DNA from: Microgenomates group bacterium
GTDB taxonomy: Bacteria > Patescibacteriota > Microgenomatia > UBA10105 > UBA927
DNA length: 64,000 bases
Assembly: GCA_049287205.1 (NCBI GenBank)
Contig: JBAQFJ010000001.1
Location: forward strand, 511,041 to 575,040
Direction of reading: 5' to 3'
Under the pieces are notes generated by a model that ran no database searches, was not told the origin of the DNA, and saw only the letters and a program-made list of their open reading frames with translations. The position numbers and the translations under genes are program-made. Shown piece by piece: positions 33,980 through 64,000 of the stretch. The stretch's first letter is position 1. Every line of letters begins with the position of its first letter.

Positions 33980-33980
33980 T

Positions 33981-35087: not shown

Positions 35088-35089
35088 TT

Positions 35090-36076: not shown

Positions 36077-36294
36077 AGTTTTTTCTCCTTTGTTAACAAC
36101 ATATACAGTATACCAATTGTGACAAATGCGGCGCCATACCAAACCAACCGTTCACCCGTAAAGAAAATCCATTTCGCAAATAGTGGAATTGCCAACAAAA
36201 AACAGAAAAGTCCTGCAATAACGAATAATTTTTCTCGCCGAAGCAATAAAAGAATACACAATAGAACGAAAAATCCTATATCTTGTGGCTTCAT
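36073..36294 (-). CDS. Small two-TM membrane protein
   Basis: 73 aa, two hydrophobic helices; translationally coupled on both sides by ATGA overlaps (with the UXS stop and the galE start). Confidence 0.45.
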   Translation of the reverse strand: MKPQDIGFFVLLCILLLLRREKLFVIAGLFCFLLAIPLFAKWIFFTGERLVWYGAAFVTIGILYMLLTKEKKL

Positions 36295-40738: not shown

Positions 40739-43713
40739 AATGAATTTGTATGTTTTCTTTGTATGTATACAATCAATCCAACGCCACCCAATAAACCCAA
40801 CATTGTTACCATGCCACCGATATAAAACGTCCGTTGCGGTTCATAAACAATGGAAAACGTATGTGTGTCCTGTAGCTCCAATACCCAAGCGTTTGCATAC
40901 CCGTTTGCCCGAATATGATATTCTTCAGGAATTGCTTTTCCGTCAACTAACAATTTCCATCGGACATCAAACTGCTCATTAAACACTATTGTTGAAGGAC
41001 TTGAGGACGCCATTATTTCACCTGAATAGCTACTTGGATGTATCTCAGTAAAACGTACTTGACCACTTGATTTTGTACTCGGTTTCTCCCTGACAAAATA
41101 TATATTTTCAATTGTTGGAAGCAGGGCGTCTTGATTAAGAACAGTAATTTTATGGTATCCCTCAGTTAGACTAACTGTGCCGGATGAAGTCGATTGTGAG
41201 TCTATAAAAACCCTATGTAACGGTATCGCGCTATGAACCGTATATGCATCGGTTTGCGGTATTTCTACCTCAATTTTATACGTGGTTGTATCTGTCGTCA
41301 GCCAAGATTCCGCGCGAAGTGTTTTTTCAAACGCAACTATATTTTTACTGACTTCCTTTTGATTTTCATCAATTCCCATGGTGGCAACATAATGCTTTTG
41401 TGCTTGTACAAACGACAGGATTCGTATCACATAATCATTTTTTATTTTGCCGGTCAAACTACTGATTTCCTCAATCACAGTTTTCATCAGAACTGTATAG
41501 TCTTCAAAATTAACGGCGGACTCCGACAGATTATTTTGAAGAGTATTCCATTTCGCCTTCTGCAAATTCGTGTTTGCAATCATTATTTGCGCATCTATTG
41601 TTGACTGTATCGATGTTGCTGTTTCCAAGGAAGTTTTTTCGAAGTATTCTTTTCGTTTGAACAATATCGATCCTGGGGCATACGTTAAATCCGTTATTGA
41701 AAGACCGTTATCAATAGCATCTCGTTCCTTTTGGCTACATGCCACACATGTTGCCTGCGTCACATCCATCGTTGAGACAGTATCCAGTAGTGTAGCGGCA
41801 GAGGCGTGAATAGTATCAACGACTATTGTTTCCTTATTTTGTGCAAACGCCATAAAGACATCTGCGTGTGACACATCTTTTCCGTGCGCAGTAATGATAT
41901 CCGATCCAATATATATTTTGGATACGGCGACGGACGCCGGAATTTTGTACAAAGTCCATAAACCGATATTCTTAACCTCAACAAATGACCACGAAAGAAA
42001 ATTCTTCTTTTGCCAAACGATTGACCGATTATCCTGATACTCATTTTTATATACTGCATCATCTCTCCATAATATATATGTGATGCCTAACGTTTCAGCG
42101 ATCCGTATAAACCGATCTCTATCGTTTGTTCGAAGTGACTCATATAAACGAGTTATCATTTGGTTTGCGTCATTGTCATTTGCAATGAGCCCTCGTGACA
42201 TAACGCTTCGCGGTAATATATCCAGACTAAAATACCCCCATGACGATGTATCGAGAAGCACGTTGTAATATCCCGAATCTAAGGCGGGTAAAATCGCAAT
42301 CCGTGCATCCTTCTCAGTTGTTGTATTAACGAATTGCCCCATATCGTTCACATAGGAAGGGACAGACACGCGAGTACTAAACGGATTCATAAACGTAAAT
42401 ACATCCTTAGTAAAAAATGGATAATGATACGCAAGTATATATCCAAGGAGCACACTGCTTATCAGAAGTGCAAGAGTTTTTGACCGTATAGAAAGAATAC
42501 ATCGATGTAACGTATATCCCGATAACATAATGATGGGAATCCACACCATAGGCGCAAACTTATAAAAACTTGATCTAAAAATCGCGAACCCTGGTATATG
42601 CCGCATAGCCCATGTAAAAAGAAAGCCAAACGGCGGGTGTGAACCAGCGGCCAACACCAACCCAACCAACAACACAAGGAACAAACCAATGAGAAGCTGA
42701 TAGTTCTTTTCGACTTTCTGGGTAACCATTCCTCTGACAAAAAATATGGAGCCTACAAATGTAATGAACGCTGGGACGAAACTCAGAAAAACAAGTAAAG
42801 GATTTGTCAAAAAAGGCTTCGCAAACAAATTATTCGTATTATCATACCAATCCGGTATTCCCTGTAATCGAAGCAGATTTATAAAACTTGCATTCTTACT
42901 GATTCCCTGTTCCCATGCAATCAGCCCTTCCATTCCCCCGTTGTCACCAAGAGCCTGCGCATAGGTAGTCAGATACAAATGCATTTGAGGAAAAATCCAG
43001 TAGAAATTCAACACAATAAATGAGAGCAAGAATGCGCAACCAACAGTGAGACATCGTTTTATTTCGGTTCGTCCATTTTTTCTTATCGCGTATATTGAAA
43101 ACCAGACATAACAAATGAATAACGTCATTACAGTCGATCCATACAAGGGAGGCGATCCGCCGCCATTAAGTAAAAAATATAAGACTCCAAAATAGAGCGC
43201 GTTTATACCAATCGACTTTCTTTGTATGATTGACCGATAGAAAAGTGCAATTGCTATAGGCAAGGCCGCAAAGAGTGAAAACTTGGCACGTTCTCCAATA
43301 AACCACCCTTGAAAAACATAGAAGTTGAACATGGCAAATATGGATGACCATAAACGCAGGAAACGATATTTTTGATCAGAAAATAGAATATACACACCCA
43401 GCCACATACCAAACCCAAGGGTAAAAAACCAACCTATTAGGGCGAGCCGTTGTCCCCATAGCACTGACCCCGTAATTGCAGAAAAAAGCGTTTCAGGAAA
43501 TTGTGTTATAAGAAACGCTTTATATAACGACCAATCCTTTCCTATATTAATATAGGGATTCCAGGAATAAAAAATATTTTTCAGATGTTCAAGAGGAGCC
43601 AATCGGAAACCGCTATCGTGCCCCAACAACATCTGACCATCACGAAACCACAAGAGAGGAACTAATGAAAGGAGAAGTAGGAGTACGATCTCTCCCCAGA
43701 CTTTTTTTCTCAT
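40735..43713 (-). CDS. Very large polytopic membrane protein (992 aa), YfhO/AftD-like GT-C or polymerase candidate with a long C-terminal extracytoplasmic domain
   Basis: About 14 N-terminal TM helices; conserved PPFG...IPGF.IFR..FYKF block; roughly 550-aa soluble region; final TM helix (GGMVTMLGLLGGVGLIVYI) near the C-terminus. Confidence 0.4.
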   Translation of the reverse strand: MRKKVWGEIVLLLLLSLVPLLWFRDGQMLLGHDSGFRLAPLEHLKNIFYSWNPYINIGKDWSLYKAFLITQFPETLFSAITGSVLWGQRLALIGWFFTLGFGMWLGVYILFSDQKYRFLRLWSSIFAMFNFYVFQGWFIGERAKFSLFAALPIAIALFYRSIIQRKSIGINALYFGVLYFLLNGGGSPPLYGSTVMTLFICYVWFSIYAIRKNGRTEIKRCLTVGCAFLLSFIVLNFYWIFPQMHLYLTTYAQALGDNGGMEGLIAWEQGISKNASFINLLRLQGIPDWYDNTNNLFAKPFLTNPLLVFLSFVPAFITFVGSIFFVRGMVTQKVEKNYQLLIGLFLVLLVGLVLAAGSHPPFGFLFTWAMRHIPGFAIFRSSFYKFAPMVWIPIIMLSGYTLHRCILSIRSKTLALLISSVLLGYILAYHYPFFTKDVFTFMNPFSTRVSVPSYVNDMGQFVNTTTEKDARIAILPALDSGYYNVLLDTSSWGYFSLDILPRSVMSRGLIANDNDANQMITRLYESLRTNDRDRFIRIAETLGITYILWRDDAVYKNEYQDNRSIVWQKKNFLSWSFVEVKNIGLWTLYKIPASVAVSKIYIGSDIITAHGKDVSHADVFMAFAQNKETIVVDTIHASAATLLDTVSTMDVTQATCVACSQKERDAIDNGLSITDLTYAPGSILFKRKEYFEKTSLETATSIQSTIDAQIMIANTNLQKAKWNTLQNNLSESAVNFEDYTVLMKTVIEEISSLTGKIKNDYVIRILSFVQAQKHYVATMGIDENQKEVSKNIVAFEKTLRAESWLTTDTTTYKIEVEIPQTDAYTVHSAIPLHRVFIDSQSTSSGTVSLTEGYHKITVLNQDALLPTIENIYFVREKPSTKSSGQVRFTEIHPSSYSGEIMASSSPSTIVFNEQFDVRWKLLVDGKAIPEEYHIRANGYANAWVLELQDTHTFSIVYEPQRTFYIGGMVTMLGLLGGVGLIVYIQRKHTNSL

Positions 43714-43728
43714 ACTAGTATTATACCG

Positions 43729-44391
43729 TTATCTCCAAGCAACGAGAAGCGTTGTCGACACGAATCCTGGAACAGAGATATAAAAAGGTAACGGAATATT
43801 TAACGACCGATGAATTCTCCACAATAGCGGGAAGAATGACATGGGTTTACACACAATGTGCGTAAATCCCGCTTTCATAAACATCTTTTTCCATTCTTCA
43901 GGATATTTCACATTCAGGTGTGTCGGATCCGCTAAATTTTTCTGAAACGGAAATGGCGATGAGCCAATAAACTTTCCTCCAGGCTTTAATGCTTTATATA
44001 TATTTGACACTCCTTCAGATGGGTACGGCAGATGCTCTAGAACCTCAAAGCCAATGATGTAATCGTATTTAATTTTTGTGGGAATACTTTTTTGTATATC
44101 ACAGTAGATGAACGGAATATTGCCAATGAAGGTATGAGCATTCTTAATCATCATTTTTGAAACATCGCTACCGGTAATATCAGCGCCTTGGTTTTTTAAC
44201 AGATAACATACTCCCCCAGCCCCGCTACCTATCTCAATAACTTTCTTGCCCGCAAATTGAATATTGTATGTTGCCTGAATGTACGTTATCCAACCCCAAT
44301 ACCAGTTGGCGTATTTCAACACATCATGTTTCGTCCATGATGTGGCAATCGGTCGAAGATAGGTTTGAAAATATTGATCCCACTTTGACAT
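43729..44391 (-). CDS. Class I SAM-dependent methyltransferase
   Basis: VIEIGSGAGGVCYLL (motif I), ...GSDVS (post-I acidic), IIGFEVLEHLPYP, LKPGGKFIGSSP. Confidence 0.7.
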   Translation of the reverse strand: MSKWDQYFQTYLRPIATSWTKHDVLKYANWYWGWITYIQATYNIQFAGKKVIEIGSGAGGVCYLLKNQGADITGSDVSKMMIKNAHTFIGNIPFIYCDIQKSIPTKIKYDYIIGFEVLEHLPYPSEGVSNIYKALKPGGKFIGSSPFPFQKNLADPTHLNVKYPEEWKKMFMKAGFTHIVCKPMSFFPLLWRIHRSLNIPLPFYISVPGFVSTTLLVAWR

Positions 44392-44393
44392 AA

Positions 44394-45638
44394 TTATGTA
44401 TATTGAAGAAAAAATTTACTACATGTTCGTTTCATGTAGTTAATCATTTCAACGGTAATTCCCGGCCAGACCCCAACCCAAAATCCGTTATTCATAATGA
44501 TATCTGAATTATTCAGCTTGCCCACAATCCTGATATCTTTTCTGTTCATATAGGCGGGATGTTTCAATAAATTCCCTGCAAAAAGAGGACGCGTCCCAAT
44601 GTTATTATTTTCCAAAAATTCCACAAGTTGAGATTTAGTAAATGGGGCATCCTTTTTAACAATCAGCATAAATCCAAACCAACAGGGATCAGCTTCTTTC
44701 TCCCATGTTGGCAAAATAAAATATTTTTCATACTTTTTAAAAAAGGCGTATAATTTTTTAAAATTATCCTTACGCTTTTTGATAAATGTCGGAAGTTTTT
44801 TGAGTTGCGCGACCCCAATGGCCGCCTGAAAATCTGTAAGTTTCAGATTATATCCAATCTGTGAATACGTATATTTATGGTCATATCCATACGGTAAATC
44901 ACCTAATTGCCATGTAAAGCGTTTACCGCACGTGTTATCTTTTCCGGTATCACACCAGCAATCACGTCCCCAATCTCGAAATTGTCGAATAGCACGATGA
45001 ATAAGCGAATTATCAGTCACTATTGCACCACCCTCACCCATTGTTATCTGATGAGCAGGATAAAAGGAAAATGTGGAAATGTGTCCAAAAGTACCAGCCA
45101 ATTTCCCATTATATGTACCTCCTAAAGCATCGCAACAATCCTCAATCAACCAAAGATCATATTTTTTCACTAAACCAAGAATTTCATCCATTGGCATAAC
45201 ATTCCCTAATGCATGAGCCAACATGATAGCTTTGGTCTTTTTGGAAATCGCTTTTTCAATAGATTGAGCAGTTACATTACGTGATCCAAGATCAACATCG
45301 ATAAATACAGGGACAAGTTTATTTTGAATAATTGGATTCACTGTTGTCGGAAAAGCGCACGCAGTTGTAATCACTTCGTCGCCTGGTTGTAAAGCCTTTT
45401 TCCCAAACACAGATGAAGTGAGTGCCGTTAACGCAACAAGATTAGCTGAAGAACCTGAATTGAAGAGCGTGACACATTTTCTTCCTAAATACGAAGAAAA
45501 ATTCTTTTCAAAAATTTTAGAAAATTCCCCTTCAGTCCACCAACCATCACGTGCGACTTTAATAGCATTATTTATCTCTGCTTGATCGAATACTTTACCT
45601 GAAGCCGGTATATACTTAATCTTTGTTACATTTTTCAT
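44394..45638 (-). CDS. ddhC: CDP-6-deoxy-D-xylo-4-hexulose-3-dehydrase (E1; RfbH/DdhC)
   Basis: DGWWTEGEF, SGSSANLVALTALTS, LWLIEDCCDALGG, FSFYPAHQITMGEGG (His in place of the aminotransferase Lys), FRDWGRDCWCDTGKDNTCGKRF and GYDHKYTYS. Cys169-X57-Cys227-X1-Cys229-X7-Cys237 reproduces the E1 [2Fe-2S] motif. Confidence 0.9.
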   Translation of the reverse strand: MKNVTKIKYIPASGKVFDQAEINNAIKVARDGWWTEGEFSKIFEKNFSSYLGRKCVTLFNSGSSANLVALTALTSSVFGKKALQPGDEVITTACAFPTTVNPIIQNKLVPVFIDVDLGSRNVTAQSIEKAISKKTKAIMLAHALGNVMPMDEILGLVKKYDLWLIEDCCDALGGTYNGKLAGTFGHISTFSFYPAHQITMGEGGAIVTDNSLIHRAIRQFRDWGRDCWCDTGKDNTCGKRFTWQLGDLPYGYDHKYTYSQIGYNLKLTDFQAAIGVAQLKKLPTFIKKRKDNFKKLYAFFKKYEKYFILPTWEKEADPCWFGFMLIVKKDAPFTKSQLVEFLENNNIGTRPLFAGNLLKHPAYMNRKDIRIVGKLNNSDIIMNNGFWVGVWPGITVEMINYMKRTCSKFFLQYT

Positions 45639-45675
45639 AATAAGAACACATCTATATTGCTCATTCTAAGCGACA

Positions 45676-46563
45676 TTAAATTAATGATAAAATTTCAGTT
45701 CTTTTTATAAGCGGGAGTCTTCCCACATACCAATCTGCCAAAACTCTAATTGTCTTATCAAAATTTGTATATTGAAAATTAGGAATTTCTTTATTCAACC
45801 TTTTTATTGAGCATGTATATTCGAAATTCGATTCTTTATCTAGTACCGTAATCTTTTGTGGTTTATTCATAACAAACAAAATGCGCTTTGCCATGGTTAA
45901 AAAATCCCTAGGCTTACCAGATCCGATATTATATGTAGAATACTTTGGTTTGTTGTTAATAAAGTGCTCAAGTATTCTAACAAAATCATTTATATATAAA
46001 TAATCAAATTTCGCGTTGTGACGTATAGTTATAGGAATATCTAATAGGGCTTGGCAAATTATATTTGATACAAATCTGAAACGATATTCTTCATATTTTC
46101 CATAAACCCCAAAAAGTCTTAAATTATATATAGGTAATTTTGTTTCTTCTATAAAGGAGGCAACAGTATATTTATATAAGCCAAAATCATCTGAAGGCAT
46201 TCGTTTCCCAAAGTCTTTTTCTTCAGCTTTATGAATGGATGCTTGTTTACCAAATTCAGCACCAGATCCAAAATAGATCATACGTTTAAAATATTGTTTA
46301 CATCTTACAAAATTTAAAAAAATACGAATATTTGATGAAATTATATTTGTACACTCAGCCTCACTTTTTTTACCCCCAATATTGGCCGCGTGAATAATGA
46401 TATCTGAAGGATGATTTCTTAAACATTTTTCTACTTCATTTTCATCTAATAAATTTAATTCTTGATGGGTAGGAGCATAAATATGATATCTAGATGCTAA
46501 CTGCTCAACAATATTATGTCCGATAAAACCACTTCCACCAGTAAGAAATATTGTTTTTGACAT
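45676..46563 (-). CDS. NAD(P)-dependent sugar epimerase/reductase (CDP-abequose/paratose-synthase- or YerF-like 4-ketoreductase candidate)
   Basis: MSKTIFLTGGSGFIGHNIVEQL Rossmann start; 295 aa extended SDR; adjacent to ddhC and the TPP enzyme. Confidence 0.6.
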   Translation of the reverse strand: MSKTIFLTGGSGFIGHNIVEQLASRYHIYAPTHQELNLLDENEVEKCLRNHPSDIIIHAANIGGKKSEAECTNIISSNIRIFLNFVRCKQYFKRMIYFGSGAEFGKQASIHKAEEKDFGKRMPSDDFGLYKYTVASFIEETKLPIYNLRLFGVYGKYEEYRFRFVSNIICQALLDIPITIRHNAKFDYLYINDFVRILEHFINNKPKYSTYNIGSGKPRDFLTMAKRILFVMNKPQKITVLDKESNFEYTCSIKRLNKEIPNFQYTNFDKTIRVLADWYVGRLPLIKRTEILSLI

Positions 46564-46583
46564 GACTAATTATTTGAATACTT

Positions 46584-48407
46584 TTAACCCTCTTTAAGAG
46601 GTTCAATAATCATATTCTCATGAAATTCATCTCTGGGCAAAAACGGGTACATATCTTCTAATGGTTTCGATATAATCTTTCCATTAGAGTCTCTCATAGA
46701 ACTTACTTTTGGAAGAAATGGCTGATGCGGATCTAAAATGACCTCAATCAACATTGGTCCTTTTCTTGACAAAATAGTAAAAATTTTTTTCTTCAACTCA
46801 TTATGAGTTTGAATTCTATCTGTCGCAATTCCGTATGCTTTAGCTATCTTAATAAAATCAGGACATGACACTCCACTTTTAGGGTCACTTCCAACCAAGA
46901 AGCCTTCAAAATAAGCCGATTGAGTATGTTTAATACTTAGATATCCTTGATTGTTAAAAACAAATAACTTAATAGGTAAATTATGAAAAACCATTGTTTG
47001 CAGCTCTTGAAGATTCATTTCTAATCCTCCATCTCCGTGAACACAAATCACTTGTTTATTTAAATCAGCAAAACATGAACCAATTGCTGCAGGTAAACCG
47101 TATCCCATCGGTGCACAACCACCATTAGTAAAATATCTTTGACCCCTCTTCAACTTCAATGCTTGAGAGGAACTATAGAAAGTCGCACCTTGATCAGTGA
47201 TAACAGTATCATTTGGAGAAAGATAATCCGACAATATATCAAAAAAATAATATGAATTAACATACCTTTTTGATTTATCTTCTTTCATCTCAACTAAAGG
47301 AAATCGATCTCTCCAAGTTTTACATCTGTCAACCCATACGTTAGTTTGTAGACGTTGGCGACCCAATTCTCTACCCAATCTTTGAAAAAAATCTTTTAGA
47401 TCCGCATGTATTACAACGTCTGTGTTAATAAGTGGATGTTTTAATTGGGCTTCGTCAATATCAACAACTATTTTCTTTGCTTCTCTTGCAAATAATTTAG
47501 TTTCGTATCCAACCACCGTCAAAGGCAAACTGGATCCTAATGAAAGCACCAAATCGGCATTCTGCACAGCGAAATTCGCGGCACGTTGCCCATTAATACC
47601 TATACTACCAACACGGAGAGGGTGCTTATAATAAATAAGGTCAAAACCATTTTTTGTCGTGACTACTGGAATTTGATATTTCTCTATAAATTTTAAAAAC
47701 TTATCTTCTGAATGTGAGAGTCTAATGCCATTTCCGGCAATTATAATTGGTCTGTCGGATTTCTTTAATAATTTAACCAAAATTTTTATTTTTTTCGTCT
47801 CATTTTTATGACCAGCTTTAATACCCACTATTTCCTTTTGTGGAAAATATCTAGGCAACATTCTTTCATCTATCATCTTTGCTTGAATATCCAACGGTAT
47901 GGCTATCCAAACTGGACCTGGACGACCAGTTTTAGCTAAAAATACAGACTTTTCTAAATGATATCTAATGGTTGTTTCATCTGTTATTGTCACAGCATAT
48001 TTCGTAATACTCTCGACTAATTTCGTGATATCAACTTCCTGCACGCCTCTTTGTCTTCTCCCAGTATTTCCGATAAGTAATTTTGAATTAGCTTGTCCTG
48101 ATATAAATATAACTGGAATCGAATCATCCCAAGAACACATAACCCCAGTTATAGTGTTTGTTCCACCAGGACCCGTTGTTACCATGGCTACTCCAAGATT
48201 ATTGGTTGTCCGTTGATATCCCTCTGCAGATATTGCACACGCCTGTTCGTGATGATTACATATATACTTAATATCTTTACTTCTTCCCAAAGAATCAAAT
48301 AAATACATGCCACCTCCACCTGATACCATAAATATATGTTTAACGCCTTGTTGAGCAATAAACTTCATAACGTAATCAGATAAGCGAATTAGTTTTTTTC
48401 CATTCAT
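46584..48407 (-). CDS. Thiamine-diphosphate-dependent enzyme, acetolactate-synthase-like (YerE-like branched-chain sugar synthase candidate)
   Basis: 607 aa; TPP N-domain (GVKHIFMVSGGGGMY...GVAMVTTGPGGTN), central domain, TPP C-domain with the GDG...N Mg-binding motif (ICVHGDGGLEMNLQELQT). Confidence 0.8.
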   Translation of the reverse strand: MNGKKLIRLSDYVMKFIAQQGVKHIFMVSGGGGMYLFDSLGRSKDIKYICNHHEQACAISAEGYQRTTNNLGVAMVTTGPGGTNTITGVMCSWDDSIPVIFISGQANSKLLIGNTGRRQRGVQEVDITKLVESITKYAVTITDETTIRYHLEKSVFLAKTGRPGPVWIAIPLDIQAKMIDERMLPRYFPQKEIVGIKAGHKNETKKIKILVKLLKKSDRPIIIAGNGIRLSHSEDKFLKFIEKYQIPVVTTKNGFDLIYYKHPLRVGSIGINGQRAANFAVQNADLVLSLGSSLPLTVVGYETKLFAREAKKIVVDIDEAQLKHPLINTDVVIHADLKDFFQRLGRELGRQRLQTNVWVDRCKTWRDRFPLVEMKEDKSKRYVNSYYFFDILSDYLSPNDTVITDQGATFYSSSQALKLKRGQRYFTNGGCAPMGYGLPAAIGSCFADLNKQVICVHGDGGLEMNLQELQTMVFHNLPIKLFVFNNQGYLSIKHTQSAYFEGFLVGSDPKSGVSCPDFIKIAKAYGIATDRIQTHNELKKKIFTILSRKGPMLIEVILDPHQPFLPKVSSMRDSNGKIISKPLEDMYPFLPRDEFHENMIIEPLKEG

Positions 48408-50134
48408 AATTTATTATTTATTTTTAATAAATTCTTATAAAATTTTATGTGCGATGTCGGTGTAATTATAAATAAAGGTATACCTTTAACAACTAAATAA
48501 TCCGATAATAAATCCAATTGAACACTAAAATTTTCGTACTTTTTTGATGACACTTCTTTGTCTTCCTTTAATCCATCTTCATTATAGAAGTATTGAATTT
48601 CCTTTGTCTTTTTATCTTTATAACCATCCATTCCTACAACTAAAATTTCTTTCGCGCCCATTTGAATCGCAGTTAATATCGCGGCAACACCCACGTTCAA
48701 GTAAGCATGATTCTGCACTATGTCACTTATCAACGAATGTTCTGACCTATCAACCAATGCAATCTCAATATATTCTCGTTTCCCGATAAAATTTTCATTT
48801 ACTAAGTTCTTTCCAAAATATGAAGGTATTAATAAAATACTTCGATTATCTACTGTTGAAGAATATCTAAGAAATCTTTTCTTGCTTACGAATATATGAT
48901 AATTTGGTTTATATAGACCCTCTAGATAATTACAACCTATAGTTACAAGCTTTTCTTTTTTTATTAATTTGTTGATTGTTTTTTTATATTTTTTTATAGT
49001 AGGGCCATTGGCTATAATTAAAAATCTTTTATTTTTGTGTTTATTTGTAAAAACAACATCTTTCAAATGAAATGCATCTTTCGATGGAAACAGTTTAACT
49101 TGTTCCTCAATTTCTTCAACCACTGTTTTAGCGCTATCACGGGAAGGAACATAGAGGCGTTGTTGTAATGATGTGTCTAATTTATTTTTATTAAATGAAA
49201 TTGGACAGTCTTGTTTAATATGATCCAAAACATTCCATATCTCTTCGATAGTAAAATTTCCAGTTTTAATCAATTCATCAACATAATAGGGATGAATATT
49301 TCTACCTCCACTCAGTAAAGTTTTTAATGAGTATCCCCATTTTAATTCATCTTTTAATTTTAGATAAAAACGATCAATGACATCTAGATATGGAACTACG
49401 TTGTATTTTACATCACCCTTAGTTTGTAAATAATTTAGCAATATTTCGATCGGGAGATTTCCCGCCCCTCTACCCATACCGTATATCGATGCATCAACAT
49501 AACCTACACCATCGTTTATGGCTTGCAAGGCATTAGCGAAAGCCATTTGTAAATTGTTATGAGAATGAAATCCAATATTTTTAAAACCAATATGTTTCAA
49601 TTTTCTAATATACTTTGAAATATCTGATGGAATATAAGAACCAAAACTATCTGCGAAGTATACCGCCTCCAAAAATTTTCTATTCTTCCAATTTTCAATT
49701 ATATTCATCTCTAAATTTTTCCACTCTGATGAAGCCATCAGTTGCAAAAATACTAAGTATCCTTTATCAAACAGTTTTTCAATAAGATTGATTGCTTGCT
49801 TAGCTTCATATGGATATGCAGCGACTCTTATCCCCACAAAAGGCGTCAACTCTTTTCTGCATTTAGGAATTTTATAATTTGTATACTTACCCGCATCTAT
49901 CATGCAAAGTAATTTACAGTCCGTTAACGATTTAAATAAGGAATTAATATATTCTTCACGACAATATCCAAATTCTCCTAATCCAATTATGTTATTATCA
50001 TTTTTGTAACCAATTTCAAAATAATCGACTTGGGCATTTGAAGCAGCAAAATAGGAAGCCTTTACCAATGACTCATCAAAATGCCATTTGTTTATATGAC
50101 CACCATCTCTTATTGAACAATCGATTATCTTCAT
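48404..50134 (-). CDS. Fusion protein: DmpG-type class II pyruvate aldolase (HMGL-like TIM barrel) + GT42/Maf(DUF115)-like nucleotide-sugar transferase-like domain
   Basis: N-terminal IIDCSIRDGGH (D-x-x-x-RDG-xH), GFHSHNNLQMAFANALQAINDGVGYVDASIYGMGRGAGNLPIEILL (near-identical to the DmpG metal-site block). C-terminal LIIANGPTIKKY, VTIGCNYL and NVGVAAILTAIQMGAKEILVVGMDGY parallel the Cst-II/Maf motifs (GNGPS, RCNQFY, GYKEIYLSGIDFY). Confidence 0.6.
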   Translation of the reverse strand: MKIIDCSIRDGGHINKWHFDESLVKASYFAASNAQVDYFEIGYKNDNNIIGLGEFGYCREEYINSLFKSLTDCKLLCMIDAGKYTNYKIPKCRKELTPFVGIRVAAYPYEAKQAINLIEKLFDKGYLVFLQLMASSEWKNLEMNIIENWKNRKFLEAVYFADSFGSYIPSDISKYIRKLKHIGFKNIGFHSHNNLQMAFANALQAINDGVGYVDASIYGMGRGAGNLPIEILLNYLQTKGDVKYNVVPYLDVIDRFYLKLKDELKWGYSLKTLLSGGRNIHPYYVDELIKTGNFTIEEIWNVLDHIKQDCPISFNKNKLDTSLQQRLYVPSRDSAKTVVEEIEEQVKLFPSKDAFHLKDVVFTNKHKNKRFLIIANGPTIKKYKKTINKLIKKEKLVTIGCNYLEGLYKPNYHIFVSKKRFLRYSSTVDNRSILLIPSYFGKNLVNENFIGKREYIEIALVDRSEHSLISDIVQNHAYLNVGVAAILTAIQMGAKEILVVGMDGYKDKKTKEIQYFYNEDGLKEDKEVSSKKYENFSVQLDLLSDYLVVKGIPLFIITPTSHIKFYKNLLKINNKL

Positions 50135-50145
50135 TTTGCAATACC

Positions 50146-50901
50146 CTAACGTATATTTAGTTCATCATATGAATGAATAATATAATTACTGTATTTTGAT
50201 AACTCTTGAAACGATGTTTGACCCAAAGTAACACCTATTCCTGCTTTTAATCCTCCTTTAGCTGCCATAATCAAATCCATAGGAGCATCACCTAAACAAA
50301 TTGATTTATCTGCTGTTGATCCTAACATATCTAAAGCAATTTTTACATGCACCCCTGAAGCTTTCGGCAAAACTGATTGCTCTCTGCCAATATATGCGTC
50401 GATATAACTATTAAGCTTTAATAAGCTCATGCATTTCTTTGCGTTTACCACACTATCAGAAGTCACAATGGCTATTTTTATGTTCCTACTCTTTAATTTC
50501 TTCATTAAATTCTTAATTCCTGGCAATATTACAACGTAATTATCCATTTTATTTAAAAAATCTTTATGAACTTGTTCAAATAGGTTTTGAATTTCAATTT
50601 TAGATATTGTGATATTGTTATTCTTTAACTTTCTGAATAATATATCTATAATTTCTTCCCTAGATAGAATACCTACAGGACCAAATTCTAATAATTTTTG
50701 CTTAGACAAGTCGTATCCCATCCATAAACATATTTTATTAAAGAATTGTGAATTTAATTTGTAATCTTTAACGAATGCGCTACTTCGCATTTTAATAATC
50801 TCACCCCAATAAATGTGTAAGTCTTGTATAGTTCCATCTTTATCAAACAAAACAGTCTCAACGTCCTTAATACACCAATTGAGAGCACTAAAATTTATCA
50901 T
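50146..50901 (-). CDS. HAD-superfamily phosphatase (subfamily IA-like)
   Basis: Motif I LFDKDGTI, motif II IVTSD, motif IV LGDAPMD. Confidence 0.75.
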   Translation of the reverse strand: MINFSALNWCIKDVETVLFDKDGTIQDLHIYWGEIIKMRSSAFVKDYKLNSQFFNKICLWMGYDLSKQKLLEFGPVGILSREEIIDILFRKLKNNNITISKIEIQNLFEQVHKDFLNKMDNYVVILPGIKNLMKKLKSRNIKIAIVTSDSVVNAKKCMSLLKLNSYIDAYIGREQSVLPKASGVHVKIALDMLGSTADKSICLGDAPMDLIMAAKGGLKAGIGVTLGQTSFQELSKYSNYIIHSYDELNIR

Positions 50902-51938
50902 ACTAAGTACTTCAAGGTTTCATTAACTAATTCCTTTGCCTTTTTATAAGCTGAATTGAAGATAGTTTTGTTTTCAAAAAAATCTTCGTTATTTAATTCC
51001 TCTTTAATAATTTTTCGTGCAAACGATCCCAAAGACACACCGTTTGCTTGAACTTCAAATAATTTCGCCAATTTTGACGTCTTACTATTTGTTCCACCCG
51101 ACATTAGCACCCAAACAGGTAGTCTTGCCTTTTGTACGATATCAGCTGTAGCGATTGTTTGAAGTGTGGTGTTGTTGTTGTCATTTGAACCGCTCATTGG
51201 AGATCCGTCTGCCTGAACAATTGTCGTAAAATCCTTTCTGTCTTTAATAAATAATTTGATCCTGTTAATAAGTTGTTTATCGCTTAAATGAGATCTGTCT
51301 AAACAAACACTCAATATTCCCGGAAAAGCTTTGTTCATTGTTCTCCAAATGCTATATGATTCGTCATCATCTTCTGTAATAGCATGTAGTTCAATTGAAG
51401 AAACGCCTAAATCAATTAATGGTGGTAAAATTTTACGTAAATTTCTTTCTTTATACTGAAAATCAATGGCTCCAAATTTACAAACTTTTGCGCACGCGTT
51501 GCACCCTATACATTTGCTATCAATTACTAGGTATTTTTTTATACCTTTTGAATCAACTGCATTTTGAATAGCATTTTGTAAACATACAACTGAACAGGCA
51601 CCGCACGCGCGACATTTTTCCAAATTAATTCTAGCTTTCATTGCATGTGGATCCCCATTAACTCCCACGCTTACACAATAAAAATATTCCTTCCTTTTAT
51701 TCTTTGGAACTACTCGTTCGATTCCTTTTTTAGCTGCTAACACTGATTCTTTGTTTGGTGATAAATCAAAATAATGTACCCCTGCTTTTGCGTAAACAGC
51801 AACTAACCTCTCGATCATTTTATAATCCTCGTTACCAGCGCCACAAATTAGCTTGAAGCATTTCTTTTGATTGAGCAAATCTGATAATTTCATATTGTAT
51901 TTAATATTGAATAGCATGTATATGTTATCAAACAGCAT
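50898..51938 (-). CDS. TIM-barrel-like protein with an embedded 2x[4Fe-4S] ferredoxin domain
   Basis: Two CxxCxxCxxxC motifs (CRACGACSVVC and CIGCNACAKVC) at residues ~108-150. The flanks (LICGAGNEDY...VAVYAKAGVHYFDLS and C-terminal VWVLMSGGTNS...ANGVSLGS) resemble a phosphate-binding (beta/alpha)8 barrel. Confidence 0.55.
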   Translation of the reverse strand: MLFDNIYMLFNIKYNMKLSDLLNQKKCFKLICGAGNEDYKMIERLVAVYAKAGVHYFDLSPNKESVLAAKKGIERVVPKNKRKEYFYCVSVGVNGDPHAMKARINLEKCRACGACSVVCLQNAIQNAVDSKGIKKYLVIDSKCIGCNACAKVCKFGAIDFQYKERNLRKILPPLIDLGVSSIELHAITEDDDESYSIWRTMNKAFPGILSVCLDRSHLSDKQLINRIKLFIKDRKDFTTIVQADGSPMSGSNDNNNTTLQTIATADIVQKARLPVWVLMSGGTNSKTSKLAKLFEVQANGVSLGSFARKIIKEELNNEDFFENKTIFNSAYKKAKELVNETLKYLV

Positions 51939-51979
51939 TACAAAAAACCATTTGATAATCTACAATATCAATGTATTCT

Positions 51980-52930
51980 TTATTCCCTCTTAAAATATTC
52001 CTGATACCATCGAAAGACCTGCACTATCTTTTTATTAATATTATATTTCGATTTCCAACCTAATCTTCGTATTTTACGATCCTCAAGATGCTGATACGGT
52101 ATTTCATTTTTTGCTGTATTTTGTATGTCATACGCAATATGCTTTTTTAACGTTTTTTCTGCTTTTTTTATTAATTCCAAAACAGAACACGTGTCATCAG
52201 AAGAAAAATTATATGCTTCGCCTGTTATATCTTTTTTTATTTCTATAAGCTTCATATATCCTAGAGCAACGTCTTTTACATAAAGATAATCGCGAATGTA
52301 AGTACCGTCACTTCGAAGTTGTAATGGCTTACCTACAATAATGGATTGGCAGATACCTGGAATAATTCTGTCAAAATGCATATCTCCTTCGCCGTACACA
52401 TTCCCAAATCGTGTAATAACGACAGGCAATCCATAAGTTTTAAAAAACGTCTGTGCTATCAGGTCCGCACATGACTTGGATACGTCATATGGATGATCTC
52501 CTTGAAGAGGTGATGTTTCTGTATAAGCGACCTTCGTCTTTCCATATGCCTTATCTGACGAAGCAATGAGAATACGTTTGATATTTTTATCTTTCCTACA
52601 TGCTTCTAATATATTTACTGTTCCCATAATATTTGTTTCAAATGCATCATAGGGATTATCGTATGCATCTTGAACAATTGGTTGAGCTGCTAAATGTATT
52701 ACATAGGTGGGATGAATTAAGGAAAAAAATGCAGTTACCTGCTTTTTCTTTCTAATATCTACATTTCGATAAGATACTTTCTTCTCAAGGTGTTTTTCAA
52801 AAAAATAGGATTTACAGGACTTCTGAATATCGATGACAACCACCTTAAATTTTTTCTTCAAAAGAAGTTCAACAAGATGTGCACCTATAAATCCTGCTCC
52901 GCCTGTAACAACAACTGTTTCTTTTACCAT
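51980..52930 (-). CDS. NAD-dependent sugar dehydratase/epimerase, CDP-glucose 4,6-dehydratase candidate
   Basis: VVVTGGAGFIGAHL, YDVSKSCADL (YxxxK); immediately downstream of ddhA. Start set at Met10 (MVKET), 1 nt after the ddhA stop; ORF-track start is 52957. Confidence 0.55.
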   Translation of the reverse strand: MVKETVVVTGGAGFIGAHLVELLLKKKFKVVVIDIQKSCKSYFFEKHLEKKVSYRNVDIRKKKQVTAFFSLIHPTYVIHLAAQPIVQDAYDNPYDAFETNIMGTVNILEACRKDKNIKRILIASSDKAYGKTKVAYTETSPLQGDHPYDVSKSCADLIAQTFFKTYGLPVVITRFGNVYGEGDMHFDRIIPGICQSIIVGKPLQLRSDGTYIRDYLYVKDVALGYMKLIEIKKDITGEAYNFSSDDTCSVLELIKKAEKTLKKHIAYDIQNTAKNEIPYQHLEDRKIRRLGWKSKYNINKKIVQVFRWYQEYFKRE

Positions 52931-53700
52931 ACTTTCCACTCGGGGTTTTCTTTCCACTCAGTATTTAAGCGTTCAACATCTGCGTATGTATCCATGCATT
53001 GCCAATAGCCTTTATGGATGTACATAGAAAGCTGTTTTTTTTCAATAAGCCGCTTTAATGCCGGATGCTCCAATTCATTTAGCCGTAAATAATTAAAAAA
53101 AGCATATTTACAAACCATAAATCCCCCATTGACCCAATCTTGAAGAACTGGTTTCTCCACAAATGCGGTTACTCGATTATGTGTGTCTGCGCTCATTAAT
53201 CCGTATTTACTTCTTGGATATACACCTGTAACTGTTCCTATTGTTTTGTTTTTTTTATGAAAAGCGACTAATTTTTTAATATCGACATTTGCAACACCGT
53301 CACCATATGTAACCATAAAACTTTCATTTTTTGGAATGTATTTCTTCACTCGAATTATTCGTTCTCCCGGTAATGTGTCAAGTCCGGTATCAACGAAAGT
53401 TATTTTAAAATCGTCAACAAGTTTTTCATTATTCTTATCAGTGTGGATTTTTGCATTACCTGACTTTGTCGAGAGTGTAAAATCGTGTTGAAGATATTTT
53501 TGATTAAGAAAATAATCCTTTATGTAATCGCCTTTATATCCCAAAGCAATAACAAATTCATTAAAACCATAATGGCTATATATTTTCATAATATGCCATA
53601 GTATGGGCTTATTACCAATCAATACCATTGGTTTTGGTTTAAACTCAGTCTCTTCTTTAAGACGATACCCAATACCACCGCAAAGAATTACCGTTTTCAT
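52924..53700 (-). CDS. ddhA: Glucose-1-phosphate cytidylyltransferase
   Basis: MKTVILCGGIGYRLKEETEFKPKPMVLIGNKPILWHIMKIYSHYGFNEFVIALGYKGDYIKDYF closely follows the RfbF/DdhA consensus. Confidence 0.85.
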   Translation of the reverse strand: MKTVILCGGIGYRLKEETEFKPKPMVLIGNKPILWHIMKIYSHYGFNEFVIALGYKGDYIKDYFLNQKYLQHDFTLSTKSGNAKIHTDKNNEKLVDDFKITFVDTGLDTLPGERIIRVKKYIPKNESFMVTYGDGVANVDIKKLVAFHKKNKTIGTVTGVYPRSKYGLMSADTHNRVTAFVEKPVLQDWVNGGFMVCKYAFFNYLRLNELEHPALKRLIEKKQLSMYIHKGYWQCMDTYADVERLNTEWKENPEWKVW

Positions 53701-53763
53701 AATGTATGGGCATTATATACCAAATGTTAAAAATTAAAAGTTTAAATAGTTACATTATGCGAT

Positions 53764-54879
53764 TCAATCGCGAAGAGCTACAAAATTTGTATCATAATAT
53801 TTATCAAACTTATATTGGTTGACCAGCTTATTAATTCCCATTTGATACCATGAATAATTTTGCTTTATTTTATTTATGTGATATTCCAGAGAATGCTTTA
53901 TGATGACTTCACCACAGTGAAGCGAAGCAATGTCCTTTGCAATTAGGGACGTATCGGTCATAATAACCGGTAAACCAAATTCTAAATACGTTTTTATTTT
54001 CCCTGGATCTGTATACCAGGTAAATTGTGATCTATCACTCTTATACAACGCTAATCCAATAAAACAATCTTCTAATTCCTTTCCAAGCTGATCTTCCGGG
54101 ACAAACGAATTTGGAAACCAAACCCTATCTTCAAGTTTATCTCGTTTTATTATTGACTGTAGAGTCTTTACATATGCATGTTCACACACACCAATCAATT
54201 TTAGCTTATATTGTGGATGCTCATGTATGTATTTCAATATTACTTCAATATTTTGACTGGGCTTCATAACGCCAACAAAAGCTAATGTCTGTTGATTTAT
54301 TGTTTTTTTCTTTACATATTGTGGTTTCATTCCCCATGCTACCGTCCGCCTCTTCACGCTACGACTGAGATAGCCTTTATTCATACATCTATTGATACGG
54401 TCAGATAGATAATAGGTTGTTGCAATCCTATCATGATAATATTTCTTTAATTTCTCATATAGACGTATTTTCCAGTCATTCCCCGGAAAATAATCACCTA
54501 TCCAATAGGCAAATCGAATACTCAAAAAAATTCGTTGAAAGAACATAAAGAAAAAAAATATCGGATGACCTGCAAAAACAGTCCATGTACTTTTTCTATC
54601 ACGTAACTTCAATAAAACGTACCAGTACGTCATAAACCAATAGACGTAATAGAGAAATACACTGGTAGAGTTTCGTGTGTGAATAACGTTTATACGTGTA
54701 CCGTTTTCATATATATGAATCTCATTCGTATGCCCCTGCATACGCGGCATAGTATAAATAATTATCAGATTCAGTGTTCTCTGGATAAAATATTCATCAA
54801 CGTGTCCAACACTCTGGAAGCTTGCGGATAAAATAATATTGTTGTACAAATTAATTTTTCTTCGATACGTATGGCGCAT
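53764..54879 (-). CDS. GT-B fold glycosyltransferase, member of a three-gene paralog family in this locus
   Basis: 371 aa with an N-terminal TM region; C-domain motif TDPGKIKTYLEFGLPVIMTD shared with 55979..57136 (SDPSKIKKYIEVGLPVITTD) and 61091..62251 (TEPGKVKRYLACGIPVMMTD). Confidence 0.55.
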   Translation of the reverse strand: MRHTYRRKINLYNNIILSASFQSVGHVDEYFIQRTLNLIIIYTMPRMQGHTNEIHIYENGTRINVIHTRNSTSVFLYYVYWFMTYWYVLLKLRDRKSTWTVFAGHPIFFFFMFFQRIFLSIRFAYWIGDYFPGNDWKIRLYEKLKKYYHDRIATTYYLSDRINRCMNKGYLSRSVKRRTVAWGMKPQYVKKKTINQQTLAFVGVMKPSQNIEVILKYIHEHPQYKLKLIGVCEHAYVKTLQSIIKRDKLEDRVWFPNSFVPEDQLGKELEDCFIGLALYKSDRSQFTWYTDPGKIKTYLEFGLPVIMTDTSLIAKDIASLHCGEVIIKHSLEYHINKIKQNYSWYQMGINKLVNQYKFDKYYDTNFVALRD

Positions 54880-54951
54880 ATAGAATCAGAAAGTCCTATT
54901 CATGTATAATATGCATATCATTTTACTGCATATAGTGAAATTGACGAAATT
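54880..54951 (+). promoter_or_regulatory. Candidate promoter for the plus-strand GT2/GT-B pair
   Basis: Extended -10 element TGTATAAT at 54903-54910 in a 72-bp divergent intergenic region; -35 not well defined. Confidence 0.3.
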
Positions 54952-55971
54952 ATGAAAGTGAATAAGGTCGATACTCATCCTAAAGTTACTTTTATCATTC
55001 CAACTCTCAACGCTGAAAAAGATTTGCCTATTTGTTTATCATCTATACGAAAACAAAATTATCCCCAAGAAAAAATTGAAATTATTGTTGCAGATGGAGG
55101 CTCAACAGATCAAACGAGAAACATTGCTAAAAAGTTTCATTCCAAATTACTACATAATAAAAAAATCTATCAGGAATATGGCAAAACTGAAGCCTCAAAG
55201 ATTGCTACTGGTAATCTCCTGTTTTACGTTGATGCGGATAATGTACTCGCAACAAATACCTTCGTGACTTCAGTCGTCCATGTATATCTAGCACACCCTG
55301 AGGTTATGGGGTTTCTCCCACAAACCATACCGGCTCCAGATTCAAATCCCATTGATCGTTATCTCGGATATCTGTTTACCGAACCTTTTACCTGGTTTGT
55401 ATACAAGAATTCAGTTAATCCAATGGATTTTCGAAAAACGTATACTCCAATCAAGTCACTTCCGGAATTTGAACTATATCGATTTCCGAAAAGTAACATT
55501 CCTCTTTTTGGCTTAGCTCAAGGTGTTGCGACGAACAAAAAATTTTACAGGGGAACGTTTGATTATGCAGATGATATATTGTCGGGAATTAAGCTTATTC
55601 AACAGAGCGGAATAGTTGCATACATACCTAACGCTACAATATTTCATTACCACATAAAAAGCTTTTCTCAATTTATTAAAAAATATAGCTGGAGAACGCG
55701 CAACAACTTTACCAAAACCATTAAAGATACAGGACTTATCTCTCGATTATCATATTTATCTATAAAACAAAAAATACGAATTTTTCTTTTTCTTCCGTAT
55801 GCATTATCAATTATTTTTCCGCTTATCGATGGACTCAGCCTTTCGATACGTTATAACGATTTAGTTATGTTGTATCATCCAATTATTTCCTATACACTTG
55901 CGTGGATCATCATTATAGAACGTATACGTTCTATACTATGGCCAAAATCGGTAATCGGTCATTACAGATAA
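54952..55971 (+). CDS. Glycosyltransferase family 2 with C-terminal TM helices (polyprenyl-phosphate sugar synthase, GtrB/ArnC/DPM1-like)
   Basis: VTFIIPTLNAEKDLPICLSSI...IIVADGGSTDQT, DAD motif (YVDADN), two C-terminal hydrophobic helices. Confidence 0.75.
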   Translation: MKVNKVDTHPKVTFIIPTLNAEKDLPICLSSIRKQNYPQEKIEIIVADGGSTDQTRNIAKKFHSKLLHNKKIYQEYGKTEASKIATGNLLFYVDADNVLATNTFVTSVVHVYLAHPEVMGFLPQTIPAPDSNPIDRYLGYLFTEPFTWFVYKNSVNPMDFRKTYTPIKSLPEFELYRFPKSNIPLFGLAQGVATNKKFYRGTFDYADDILSGIKLIQQSGIVAYIPNATIFHYHIKSFSQFIKKYSWRTRNNFTKTIKDTGLISRLSYLSIKQKIRIFLFLPYALSIIFPLIDGLSLSIRYNDLVMLYHPIISYTLAWIIIIERIRSILWPKSVIGHYR

Positions 55972-55978
55972 TAATCCT

Positions 55979-58113: not shown

Positions 58114-58160
58114 TTTTCAAGTATAACATATCAAATAAATTCGATATAATACGTTATCTT

Positions 58161-59881: not shown

Positions 59882-59894
59882 AATAAAAACCTTA

Positions 59895-61073: not shown

Positions 61074-61090
61074 AATGACGCCATTATAAG

Positions 61091-63924: not shown

Positions 63925-64000
63925 TTATCTTGATTAATTAATACATATTCCGTAATTGATGATGTTATATCACGTACTCGTTGGTCATTCCCGTAGTAAT
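63921..64000 (-). CDS. 3' end (C-terminus) of a tandem paralog of the 62251..63924 GT-C-like gene; 5' end lies beyond the window
   Basis: The minus-strand frame ending at TGA 63921-63923 translates ...YYGNDQRVRDITSSITEYVLINQDK*, paralleling the C-terminus YYYGDDKRVHNITQEIQNEIILHQRY* of the downstream gene. The stop overlaps the next ATG (ATGA). Confidence 0.5.
   Translation of the reverse strand, partial: YYGNDQRVRDITSSITEYVLINQDK

Follow-up and report, generated by a model that had tools for sequence, protein, structure and literature searches.

Yersiniose, erwiniose, caryophyllose and other acyl-branched sugars are rare determinants of cell surfaces with immunological relevance, and the thiamine diphosphate (ThDP)-dependent enzymes branching such sugars are sought as biocatalysts for chiral tertiary alcohols. 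The yersiniose pathway of Yersinia pseudotuberculosis O:VI consists of DdhA, DdhB, DdhC (E1), DdhD (E3), YerE and YerF. A comparable gene set lies on the minus strand of a 64,000-nucleotide stretch from a Microgenomates group bacterium (assembly GCA_049287205.1, contig JBAQFJ010000001.1, positions 511,041 to 575,040 of the forward strand); this whole stretch is called the window below and all coordinates refer to it. With moderate confidence, we propose that this operon makes a cytidine diphosphate (CDP)-activated 3,6-dideoxyhexose with an acyl branch at C-4 for the surface-glycan cluster in which it is located. The locus falls, in well-preserved form, into the known class of clusters for acyl-branched 3,6-dideoxyhexoses. 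What is new is a donor module, conserved but uncharacterised, and how large and broad the enzyme clade is; some of this may have been catalogued before.

The Yersinia pathway and the operon have in common DdhA-, DdhB- and E1-type steps, a predicted ThDP-dependent branching at C-4 and a reductase gene. Unlike in Yersinia, no E3 (DdhD) is encoded, and additional genes for an aldolase, a HAD-family phosphatase and an iron-sulfur (Fe-S) protein point to a donor other than pyruvate. The clusters for erwiniose, caryophyllose and gastriose (ErwE-ErwF-ErwI-ErwJ of Pectobacterium atrosepticum, MMAR_2331/2332 of Mycobacterium marinum and MygE/F/I; PMC9306805) form another related group. Both these clusters and the operon encode the formation of CDP-4-keto-3,6-dideoxyglucose, a YerE-like ThDP carboligase, an NAD(P)H-type reductase and a pyruvate aldolase, ErwI being of the DmpG/BphI type like the N-terminal domain of the aldolase fusion described here; in each case the genes are assembled in a surface-glycan locus. 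In contrast to these clusters, the operon encodes no acetaldehyde dehydrogenase of the DmpF/ErwJ type; a HAD phosphatase and an Fe-S TIM-barrel protein similar to LdpA are present instead. Its aldolase is fused to a DUF115/MptE-like domain, no E3 is present in the cluster, and the reductase, a short-chain dehydrogenase/reductase (SDR), lacks the catalytic tyrosine. The ThDP enzyme is of another clade, to which JanthE comes nearest among characterised enzymes, in a neighbour-joining tree which included JanthE and was calculated without ErwE, MMAR_2332, MygE and YpYerE.

Two further systems are similar in part. SpnQ of the spinosyn pathway, an antibiotic pathway of an actinomycete, is likewise a 3-dehydrase with a [2Fe-2S] cluster and pyridoxamine 5'-phosphate (PMP) whose gene has no E3 partner. 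Its substrate is of the dTDP-2,6-dideoxy type, whereas the window protein is closely homologous to the Yersinia E1, which is CDP-specific. With the DmpFG and BphIJ complexes the DmpG fold, the metal site and the tight linkage to a gene of a redox protein are shared. There, the partner is an NAD/CoA-dependent acetaldehyde dehydrogenase instead of an Fe-S TIM-barrel protein, and the communication domain of DmpG takes the place of the DUF115 Rossmann-like domain found here.

The cassette comprises ten co-directional genes on the minus strand (43729-54879). Neighbours either share 4 nt or lie a few bases apart, which indicates a single operon:

43729..44391, minus: class I S-adenosylmethionine (SAM)-dependent methyltransferase, 220 aa (matches to Methyltransf_23, _12, _31 and _11)
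44394..45638, minus: E1, CDP-6-deoxy-L-threo-D-glycero-4-hexulose-3-dehydrase (DdhC/RfbH), 414 aa (NF011936, 635 bits, cutoff 423)
45676..46563, minus: RmlD-like SDR in the position of a YerF-type side-chain ketoreductase, 295 aa (Pfam Epimerase, RmlD_sub_bind)
46584..48407, minus: YerE-like (JanthE-related) ThDP-dependent carboligase, 607 aa (TPP_enzyme_N, _M and _C domains, canonical GDG)
48404..50134, minus: class II pyruvate aldolase (DmpG/BphI-like, residues 1-310) fused to a DUF115/MptE-like domain, 576 aa (Pfam, NCBIfam, PDB)
50146..50901, minus: HAD-family phosphatase, 251 aa (Pfam HAD_2, Hydrolase)
50898..51938, minus: LdpA-like Fe-S TIM-barrel protein (DUF561 N-terminus, inserted 2x[4Fe-4S] ferredoxin domain, LdpA_C)
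51980..52957, minus: extended-SDR NDP-hexose 4,6-dehydratase in the role of DdhB, 325 aa from a GTG start (best NCBIfam models, motifs)
52924..53700, minus: glucose-1-phosphate cytidylyltransferase (DdhA/RfbF-like), 258 aa (TIGR02623, 264 bits end to end, cutoff 300)
53764..54879, minus: weak glycosyltransferase of family GT1, 371 aa (Glycos_transf_1, 25.3 bits, just under the cutoff of 26.4)

In the proposed pathway, the cytidylyltransferase would convert glucose 1-phosphate to CDP-glucose, from which the 4,6-dehydratase of the D-K type would form CDP-4-keto-6-deoxyglucose. The PMP/[2Fe-2S] enzyme E1 would then yield CDP-4-keto-3,6-dideoxyglucose, with electrons from a non-dedicated donor and not from E3. 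Judged by its family and its context, the ThDP enzyme would decarboxylate a 2-oxo acid and add the acyl-anion equivalent onto the C-4 ketone, giving a tertiary alcohol. Less certainly, the DmpG-like aldolase domain would provide this donor as a 4-hydroxy-2-oxo acid from pyruvate and an aldehyde, and a branch of at least four carbons would follow, as in erwiniose or caryophyllose. As redox partner of the aldolase we propose the LdpA-like Fe-S protein, which would supply or process the aldehyde in the position of DmpF/ErwJ. Both the HAD phosphatase and the barrel of the LdpA-like protein, which is of the phosphate type, point to phosphorylation of a precursor on the donor side. The sugar may be finished by reduction of the side-chain keto group by an SDR, possibly by methylation, and by transfer through a neighbouring glycosyltransferase.

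The predicted steps to CDP-4-keto-3,6-dideoxyglucose are strongly supported by the similarities of the three sugar-side proteins. The cytidylyltransferase matched PDB 1tzf with 192 bits over residues 2-258, and a homologue was found in 54 of the 80 related loci described below. For the dehydratase, 192 bits were obtained with the CDP-glucose 4,6-dehydratase model TIGR02622 (cutoff 278) and 185 bits with the dTDP-glucose 4,6-dehydratase model; it thus stays under every 4,6-dehydratase cutoff, the curated DdhB/RfbG equivalog included, and has 325 aa compared to about 360 aa of canonical DdhB. Its motifs are SSDKAYG, with the D-K dyad, and PYDVSK (YxxxK). The motif [ST][ST]DK is common to 36 DdhB-like neighbours of E1 in related clusters, and we take the Asp-Lys dyad after Ser/Thr to be a mark of CDP-type 4,6-dehydratases. 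E1 aligned with the Yersinia E1 structure 3bcx with 495 bits (residues 9-410). His220 occupies the place of the aminotransferase lysine, in the motif YPAHQ compared to YPAHH in 3bcx and YPAKH in the H220K mutant 3bb8. All four cysteine ligands of the [2Fe-2S] cluster, Cys193, Cys251, Cys253 and Cys261, are kept (EDCCD and DCWCDTGKDNTC); the ligand numbers (C193, C251, C253, C261) are those of the E1 literature. His220 and the four ligand cysteines were invariant in 54 E1 homologues, while the non-ligand C257 varied. By these residues and its score, the protein is a true, textbook RfbH/DdhC-type enzyme.

The ThDP enzyme was compared with solved structures, among which JanthE (PDB 8rph/8rpi/8rpj), with the same three-domain fold, is the best relative. 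A score of 475 bits was reached with JanthE 8rph (residues 7-600), 271 bits with PpYerE 5ahk and at most 250 bits with plant and bacterial acetohydroxyacid synthases (AHAS); the margin over AHAS is due solely to JanthE, and PpYerE is hardly above AHAS. All equivalog models for acetolactate synthases (ALS) remained far under their cutoffs, for example TIGR00118 with 382 bits compared to 538. In the alignment with relatives, the catalytic glutamate (E54) and the GDG...N motif (G458-D459-G460 and N486) were invariant. JanthE differs by its identity of 39%, by an unusual CDG motif where the window enzyme and 76 of the 80 aligned relatives have GDG, and by its position in the tree as an outlier to both subgroups of the window clade. 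JanthE from Janthinobacterium sp. HH01 is itself YerE-like and joins C3-C6 2-oxo acids, including 4-hydroxy-2-oxovalerate, with ketone acceptors (PMC12188165); its natural substrates are not known (PMC12188165; PMC12247030). From these comparisons, the window enzyme is assigned to the YerE-like family of ketone-accepting carboligases and not to the acetolactate synthases.

A genome scan with one genome per species confirmed 579 related ThDP stretches, and the best 80 were compared. These were 45-63% identical and originated from many bacterial phyla, several lineages of the candidate phyla radiation (CPR) and two archaeal metagenome-assembled genomes (MAGs). In 46 loci at least 7 kb were available on each side of the ThDP gene; these are called well-flanked. 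E1 was present in 39 of these 46 loci and some aldolase in 35. Common neighbours in the related loci were a cytidylyltransferase, a DdhB-type SDR, an RmlD-like SDR and GT2 glycosyltransferases. Hence, the clade is strongly tied to the E1 product CDP-4-keto-3,6-dideoxyglucose. These contexts agree with the scheme of aldolase, ThDP enzyme and reductase published for erwiniose, caryophyllose and gastriose (PMC9306805). Together, the YerE-like ThDP enzyme and the presence of E1 in 39 of 46 loci make a branched 3,6-dideoxyhexose the best reading of the window.

Two subgroups were distinguished. Subgroup A contains the ThDP enzymes with at least 51% identity to the window enzyme (BLASTP) and is monophyletic in the neighbour-joining tree. 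The LdpA-like gene, the HAD phosphatase and the aldolase-DUF115 fusion were found only in this subgroup, most loci of which also have an HpcH/HpaI aldolase. Loci of subgroup B often contain a weak HpcH-like aldolase, a classical SDR, a gene similar to dehydroquinate synthase and a different HAD protein. The cassette is kept gene for gene in a flagellin glycosylation island of Clostridium botulinum and in an O-antigen-like locus of Omnitrophota. Homologous cassettes also occur in the CPR lineages Magasanikbacteria, Roizmanbacteria, Woesebacteria, Microgenomates and Gracilibacteria.

These results bear on an earlier note on this DNA. All genes named there are present on the minus strand, at or within a few codons of the positions it had given. 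The textbook E1 (635 bits with NF011936, His220 and the four cysteines) and the YerE-like rather than IlvB/IlvG-like nature of the TPP enzyme (475 bits with JanthE, ALS models below cutoff, no ilvN or ilvC in the window) were both borne out. The note had expected the product to be unusual for this type of organism, which does not agree with the homologous cassettes in several CPR lineages.

The donor module consists of the aldolase fusion, the HAD phosphatase and the LdpA-like protein. The aldolase fusion scored 71.6 bits with the HMGL-like family PF00682 and 27.5 bits with the MptE-like family, the latter under the cutoff of 34.6. Its best NCBIfam models are those of 4-hydroxy-2-oxovalerate aldolases (equivalog 109 bits compared to a cutoff of 229), and its PDB matches were 3dxi with 155 bits and DmpG 1nvm with 61 bits. 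The residues of the metal and pyruvate site, R9, D10, H190 and H192, are invariant. With the AlphaFold2 (AF2) model, which has a predicted local distance difference test (pLDDT) value of 85, the top Foldseek matches were 3dxi, described as the 'N-terminal domain' of a Bacteroides vulgatus protein, and DmpG-type aldolases (1nvm), all of them matches to the N-terminal domain. The C-terminal part of about 200 residues (about 360-560) is Rossmann-like, and MptE-like/DUF115 is recorded for most homologues. The MptE-like/DUF115 family includes archaeal pterin pyrophosphokinase and Maf flagellin glycosyltransferases, which makes nucleotide binding a likely role of this domain by analogy.

The LdpA-like protein has two CxxCxxCxxxC motifs. 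According to NCBI the product has 331 aa, and the true start is therefore probably located near 51893. The model NF045992 of the cyanobacterial circadian LdpA gave 131 bits, far from the cutoff of 450; the protein has the same architecture as circadian LdpA without being its orthologue. In profile searches of PDB sequences, no relative was detected for the LdpA barrel or for the DUF115 domain.

The LdpA-like gene was present in 11 of the 46 well-flanked loci. It was accompanied by the aldolase fusion in 11 of 11 and by the HAD phosphatase in 10 of 11 cases, and this phosphatase occurred in none of the LdpA-negative loci. Three loci (L014, L015 and L019) have the genes for LdpA, HAD, aldolase, HpcH and the ThDP enzyme, but neither E1 nor a cytidylyltransferase within 10 kb. 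Unrelated genes such as ribBA border the module in two of them. We conclude that the LdpA-like protein is functionally coupled to the aldolase, standing beside it as DmpF/ErwJ stands beside DmpG/ErwI. We tentatively suggest, as a minority view among several ways to explain these genes, that the LdpA-like barrel and the DmpG-like aldolase form a previously unrecognised Fe-S-dependent aldolase-oxidoreductase pair. This pair would make an unusual 2-oxo acid, probably phosphorylated and then dephosphorylated, as donor for the ThDP-dependent branching. In a variant of this suggestion, the LdpA-like protein doubles as the missing E3.

The search for E3 started from the Pfam scan of every non-shadow open reading frame (ORF) of at least 150 aa within the 64-kb window, in which no protein with Fer2, FAD_binding_6 or NAD_binding_1 was found. 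Motif scans for plant-type 2Fe-2S together with ferredoxin-NADP reductase (FNR) motifs, and for 4Fe-4S motifs, covered ORFs of at least 70 aa in the window and in the 85 loci of a first batch. For the window, the plant-type 2Fe-2S motif was detected in only two short ORFs (72 and 107 aa), both free of FNR motifs, and no E3-sized protein with FNR motifs was found in the window or in the 85 loci. The 4Fe-4S scan of the same set gave, outside the LdpA-like gene, only two ORFs, which lie isolated in L050 and L059 and have the motifs in pairs. The missing E3, already stated in the earlier note, was thus confirmed for the window. The note had put emphasis on it, but none of the loci fetched around the ThDP relatives encodes E3, and the Fe-S ligands are kept in all 54 E1 homologues. 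Therefore, the absence of E3 is the rule in the ThDP clade and an E3 within the cluster is the exception. A precedent is SpnQ, described as an E1-type dehydrase running on general ferredoxin or flavodoxin reductase pairs (PMC8987622). Clostridial flagellin glycosylation islands are described with RfbF/G/H(/S) only (PMC13317340); in the literature on these Clostridium islands, such RfbF/G/H(/S) sets are given and no ThDP, aldolase or LdpA genes are mentioned.

It was considered whether the LdpA-like 2x[4Fe-4S] TIM-barrel protein replaces E3, so that electrons would pass from NAD(P)H via a bound flavin, or from ferredoxin, through the two LdpA clusters to the [2Fe-2S] cluster of E1. The intact cluster ligands of E1 at a locus without E3 fit this explanation, as do the position of the LdpA-like gene between the dehydratase and the remainder of the operon and the occurrence of the family in housekeeping contexts, as could be the case for a general electron carrier. 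The distribution of the genes is at odds with it. Among the well-flanked ThDP loci, 31 have E1 without the LdpA-like gene and three have the LdpA-like gene without E1, and LdpA follows the aldolase fusion (11/11) and the HAD phosphatase (10/11). A second sample, taken from a metagenome scan and picked on LdpA itself, comprised 25 well-flanked loci, of which nine had E1, ten the ThDP enzyme and 11 an aldolase. Moreover, pairs of LdpA and a stand-alone aldolase exist without E1, and no NAD(P)H-binding domain was detectable in the LdpA-like protein. As the LdpA-like gene co-occurs with the aldolase rather than with E1, the protein is probably not a dedicated E3 substitute, and we regard this explanation as unlikely.

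Outside sugar cassettes, LdpA-like homologues with 45-50% identity were common in contigs from human gut and rumen (L106-L165, e.g. L160:1822-3018 and L133:10964-11554). In 27 of these loci a gene for a beta-lactamase-like/S11-type serine hydrolase is located directly upstream of the LdpA-like gene; other neighbours were ClpB, a U32 peptidase, FolD and a radical-SAM/BATS gene. In L141:9974-11928, L153:3710-5650 and L159:9893-11955 the LdpA-like gene directly precedes a gene for a DmpG-like aldolase that stands alone (about 325 aa, 43-51% identity to the N-terminal domain of the fusion); no ThDP or E1 gene is nearby. This arrangement looks like a conserved two-gene unit. In L113:9998-15920 the LdpA-like gene precedes a ThDP cassette of the subgroup B type (SDR, HpcH-like aldolase, ThDP enzyme, GT2), with no E1 or cytidylyltransferase within 10 kb.

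A further alternative is a simple sugar of the yersiniose type, whose branch of two carbons would come from pyruvate, in which case the aldolase fusion, the HAD phosphatase and the LdpA-like protein would serve a separate modification or another component of the glycan. Pyruvate is accepted by JanthE (PMC12188165). The aldolase-free loci L023, L026, L034 and L059 hold only the cytidylyltransferase, dehydratase, E1, ThDP enzyme, SDR and GT2 genes, so that the core set works without the donor module; in addition, the second (HpcH) aldolase is absent from the window. Set against this, the three donor-module genes are translationally coupled, lie between those for the dehydratase and the ThDP enzyme in the operon, are restricted to one monophyletic ThDP subgroup and stay next to the ThDP gene also in loci that lack the sugar genes. 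Furthermore, the scheme of aldolase, ThDP enzyme and reductase was shown for ErwE, MMAR_2332 and MygE with gamma-hydroxy-2-oxo acids (PMC9306805). This published scheme and the aldolase together argue for a donor longer than pyruvate and for a branch of the erwiniose or caryophyllose type over yersiniose. The two-carbon product is therefore rather improbable, somewhat more so than a replacement of E3 by LdpA, and by analogy the branch is probably longer than the two carbons of yersiniose. The earlier note had predicted a branched or two-carbon-extended 3,6-dideoxyhexose; the branch agrees with our reading, the length of two carbons does not, since the aldolase favours a longer one. The aldolase, HAD and Fe-S genes had been listed correctly in that note, but were left without interpretation although the aldolase implies a longer donor.

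The note had also equated the triad of E1, TPP enzyme and SDR with that of the yersiniose pathway. The three genes are present, but the SDR counted as YerF equivalent has phenylalanine in place of the catalytic tyrosine. Its best PDB match is a putative dTDP-4-dehydrorhamnose reductase, and a homologue was found in 46 related loci. In the alignment of 44 sequences, Ser100 and Lys131 were conserved, and position 127 of the YxxxK motif was Tyr in 32 sequences, His in nine and Phe in one, the window protein. The window protein carries Y127F and Y104F, is the sole one of the 44 members with either change and does not have an intact Ser-Tyr-Lys triad. An identical protein is encoded on an independent Logan contig (L001), thus the substitutions are not an assembly error. 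According to these residues, the side-chain keto group may stay unreduced, or another SDR of the cluster, for example the one at 57133-58113, may reduce it.

The ThDP enzyme could, as the remotest alternative, be a biosynthetic or catabolic acetolactate synthase which happens to sit in a glycan cluster: it has the domain architecture of AHAS and its top NCBIfam names are acetolactate synthase large subunits, but this identity is ruled out by the AHAS structures at about half the score of JanthE, by the ALS equivalog models far below cutoff, by the E1 gene neighbouring it in 39 of 46 related loci and by the Pfam scans of the 64-kb window, in which no ilvN (ACT small subunit), ilvC (ketol-acid reductoisomerase) or ilvD was found.

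Several points weigh against the proposed synthesis of a branched sugar with a dedicated donor. The role of the ThDP clade as carboligases is deduced from family and context, and JanthE, the nearest studied member, is only 39% identical. With phenylalanine at the catalytic position of the SDR, the reduction step may be missing or performed by another enzyme. The window is without the HpcH/HpaI aldolase typical of subgroup A. Moreover, 14 of the 25 loci chosen on LdpA have no ThDP, E1 or aldolase gene, and the housekeeping-type contexts of the family indicate that the reaction of the LdpA-like protein is not specific to sugars.

With regard to the origin of the genes, the window cytidylyltransferase (60-63%) and dehydratase (49-50%) were most similar to those of L034, L042, L051 and L074. 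Three of these loci are from CPR MAGs, L051 is from a MAG labelled Bacteroidota, and all four have ThDP enzymes of subgroup B. The ThDP enzyme and the donor module of the window are nearest to non-CPR loci of subgroup A. As the sugar-side genes and the ThDP and donor genes have different nearest relatives, the cassette looks mosaic by sequence similarity. Two contigs assigned to archaea, L045 (Pacearchaeota MAG) and L049 (Altiarchaeales MAG), encode ThDP relatives with 47-48% identity. In L049 an HpcH/HpaI aldolase gene is located directly upstream of the ThDP gene; in L045 no other cassette gene was found within 10 kb.

At the ends of the cassette, the assignment is less clear. The GT1-family gene (53764..54879) lies directly upstream, and no homologue of its product was found among the related loci; its membership in the cassette is uncertain. 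The methyltransferase gene (43729..44391) begins 2 nt after E1. O- or C-methylation of the sugar or the branch is possible by analogy, since a putative branched-sugar cluster of R. palustris likewise contains a SAM methyltransferase (PMC9306805).

The remaining window comprises mur/dcw cell-wall genes at 1-14.3 kb and a large glycan cluster, which starts with a Bac_transf gene at 19360 and fills the rest (19-64 kb). Besides many GT1, GT2 and GT4 genes, this cluster includes several polytopic membrane proteins and a second deoxy-amino-sugar module. Further genes of the window are:

33044-33979, plus: hexapeptide acyltransferase fused to an FdtA/WxcM-like isomerase domain (second sugar module)
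33981-35087, plus: DegT aminotransferase (second sugar module)
35090-36142 and 36291-37241, minus: two extended SDRs (second sugar module)
26784-29771, 37247-39100, 39104-40738, 40735-43713 and 62251-63924, minus: five large proteins of 544-995 aa with 7-17 hydrophobic segments
59093-59881, minus: putative methyltransferase of the DUF268 type, adjoining the following aminotransferase gene
59895-61073, minus: DegT/DnrJ-family aminotransferase, adjoining the DUF268-type gene

The second sugar module at 33044-37241 resembles a 3-acetamido-3,6-dideoxyhexose pathway, and the pair at 59093-61073 hints at a third modified sugar within the glycan cluster. For the five large membrane proteins, which are interleaved with the glycan genes, no match was found with Pfam; they may be novel polymerases, flippases or GT-C-type transferases. 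The GC content is about 42% over 1-36 kb, 39-40% up to 44 kb and, from the cassette onwards, 31-37% in all the rest of the window. A glycan island of distinct composition at 44000-64000, possibly exchanged, would fit these values.

In general, the 579 related stretches represent a large, biochemically untouched clade of ThDP enzymes with JanthE as the nearest studied relative. For organisms outside the enterobacterial paradigm, E1-type 3-deoxygenation is routinely encoded without a dedicated E3. The side module of Fe-S protein, aldolase and phosphatase recurs across many phyla, and its presence in a cultivable organism, in the flagellin island of C. botulinum, makes the structure of the sugar and the enzymology directly testable. 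If the proposed pair of LdpA-like protein and aldolase is true, widespread bacteria, ranging from the CPR to Melainabacteria, Elusimicrobia, Omnitrophota, Planctomycetes and Clostridium botulinum, would bear an undescribed higher-carbon branched sugar on their surfaces or flagella.

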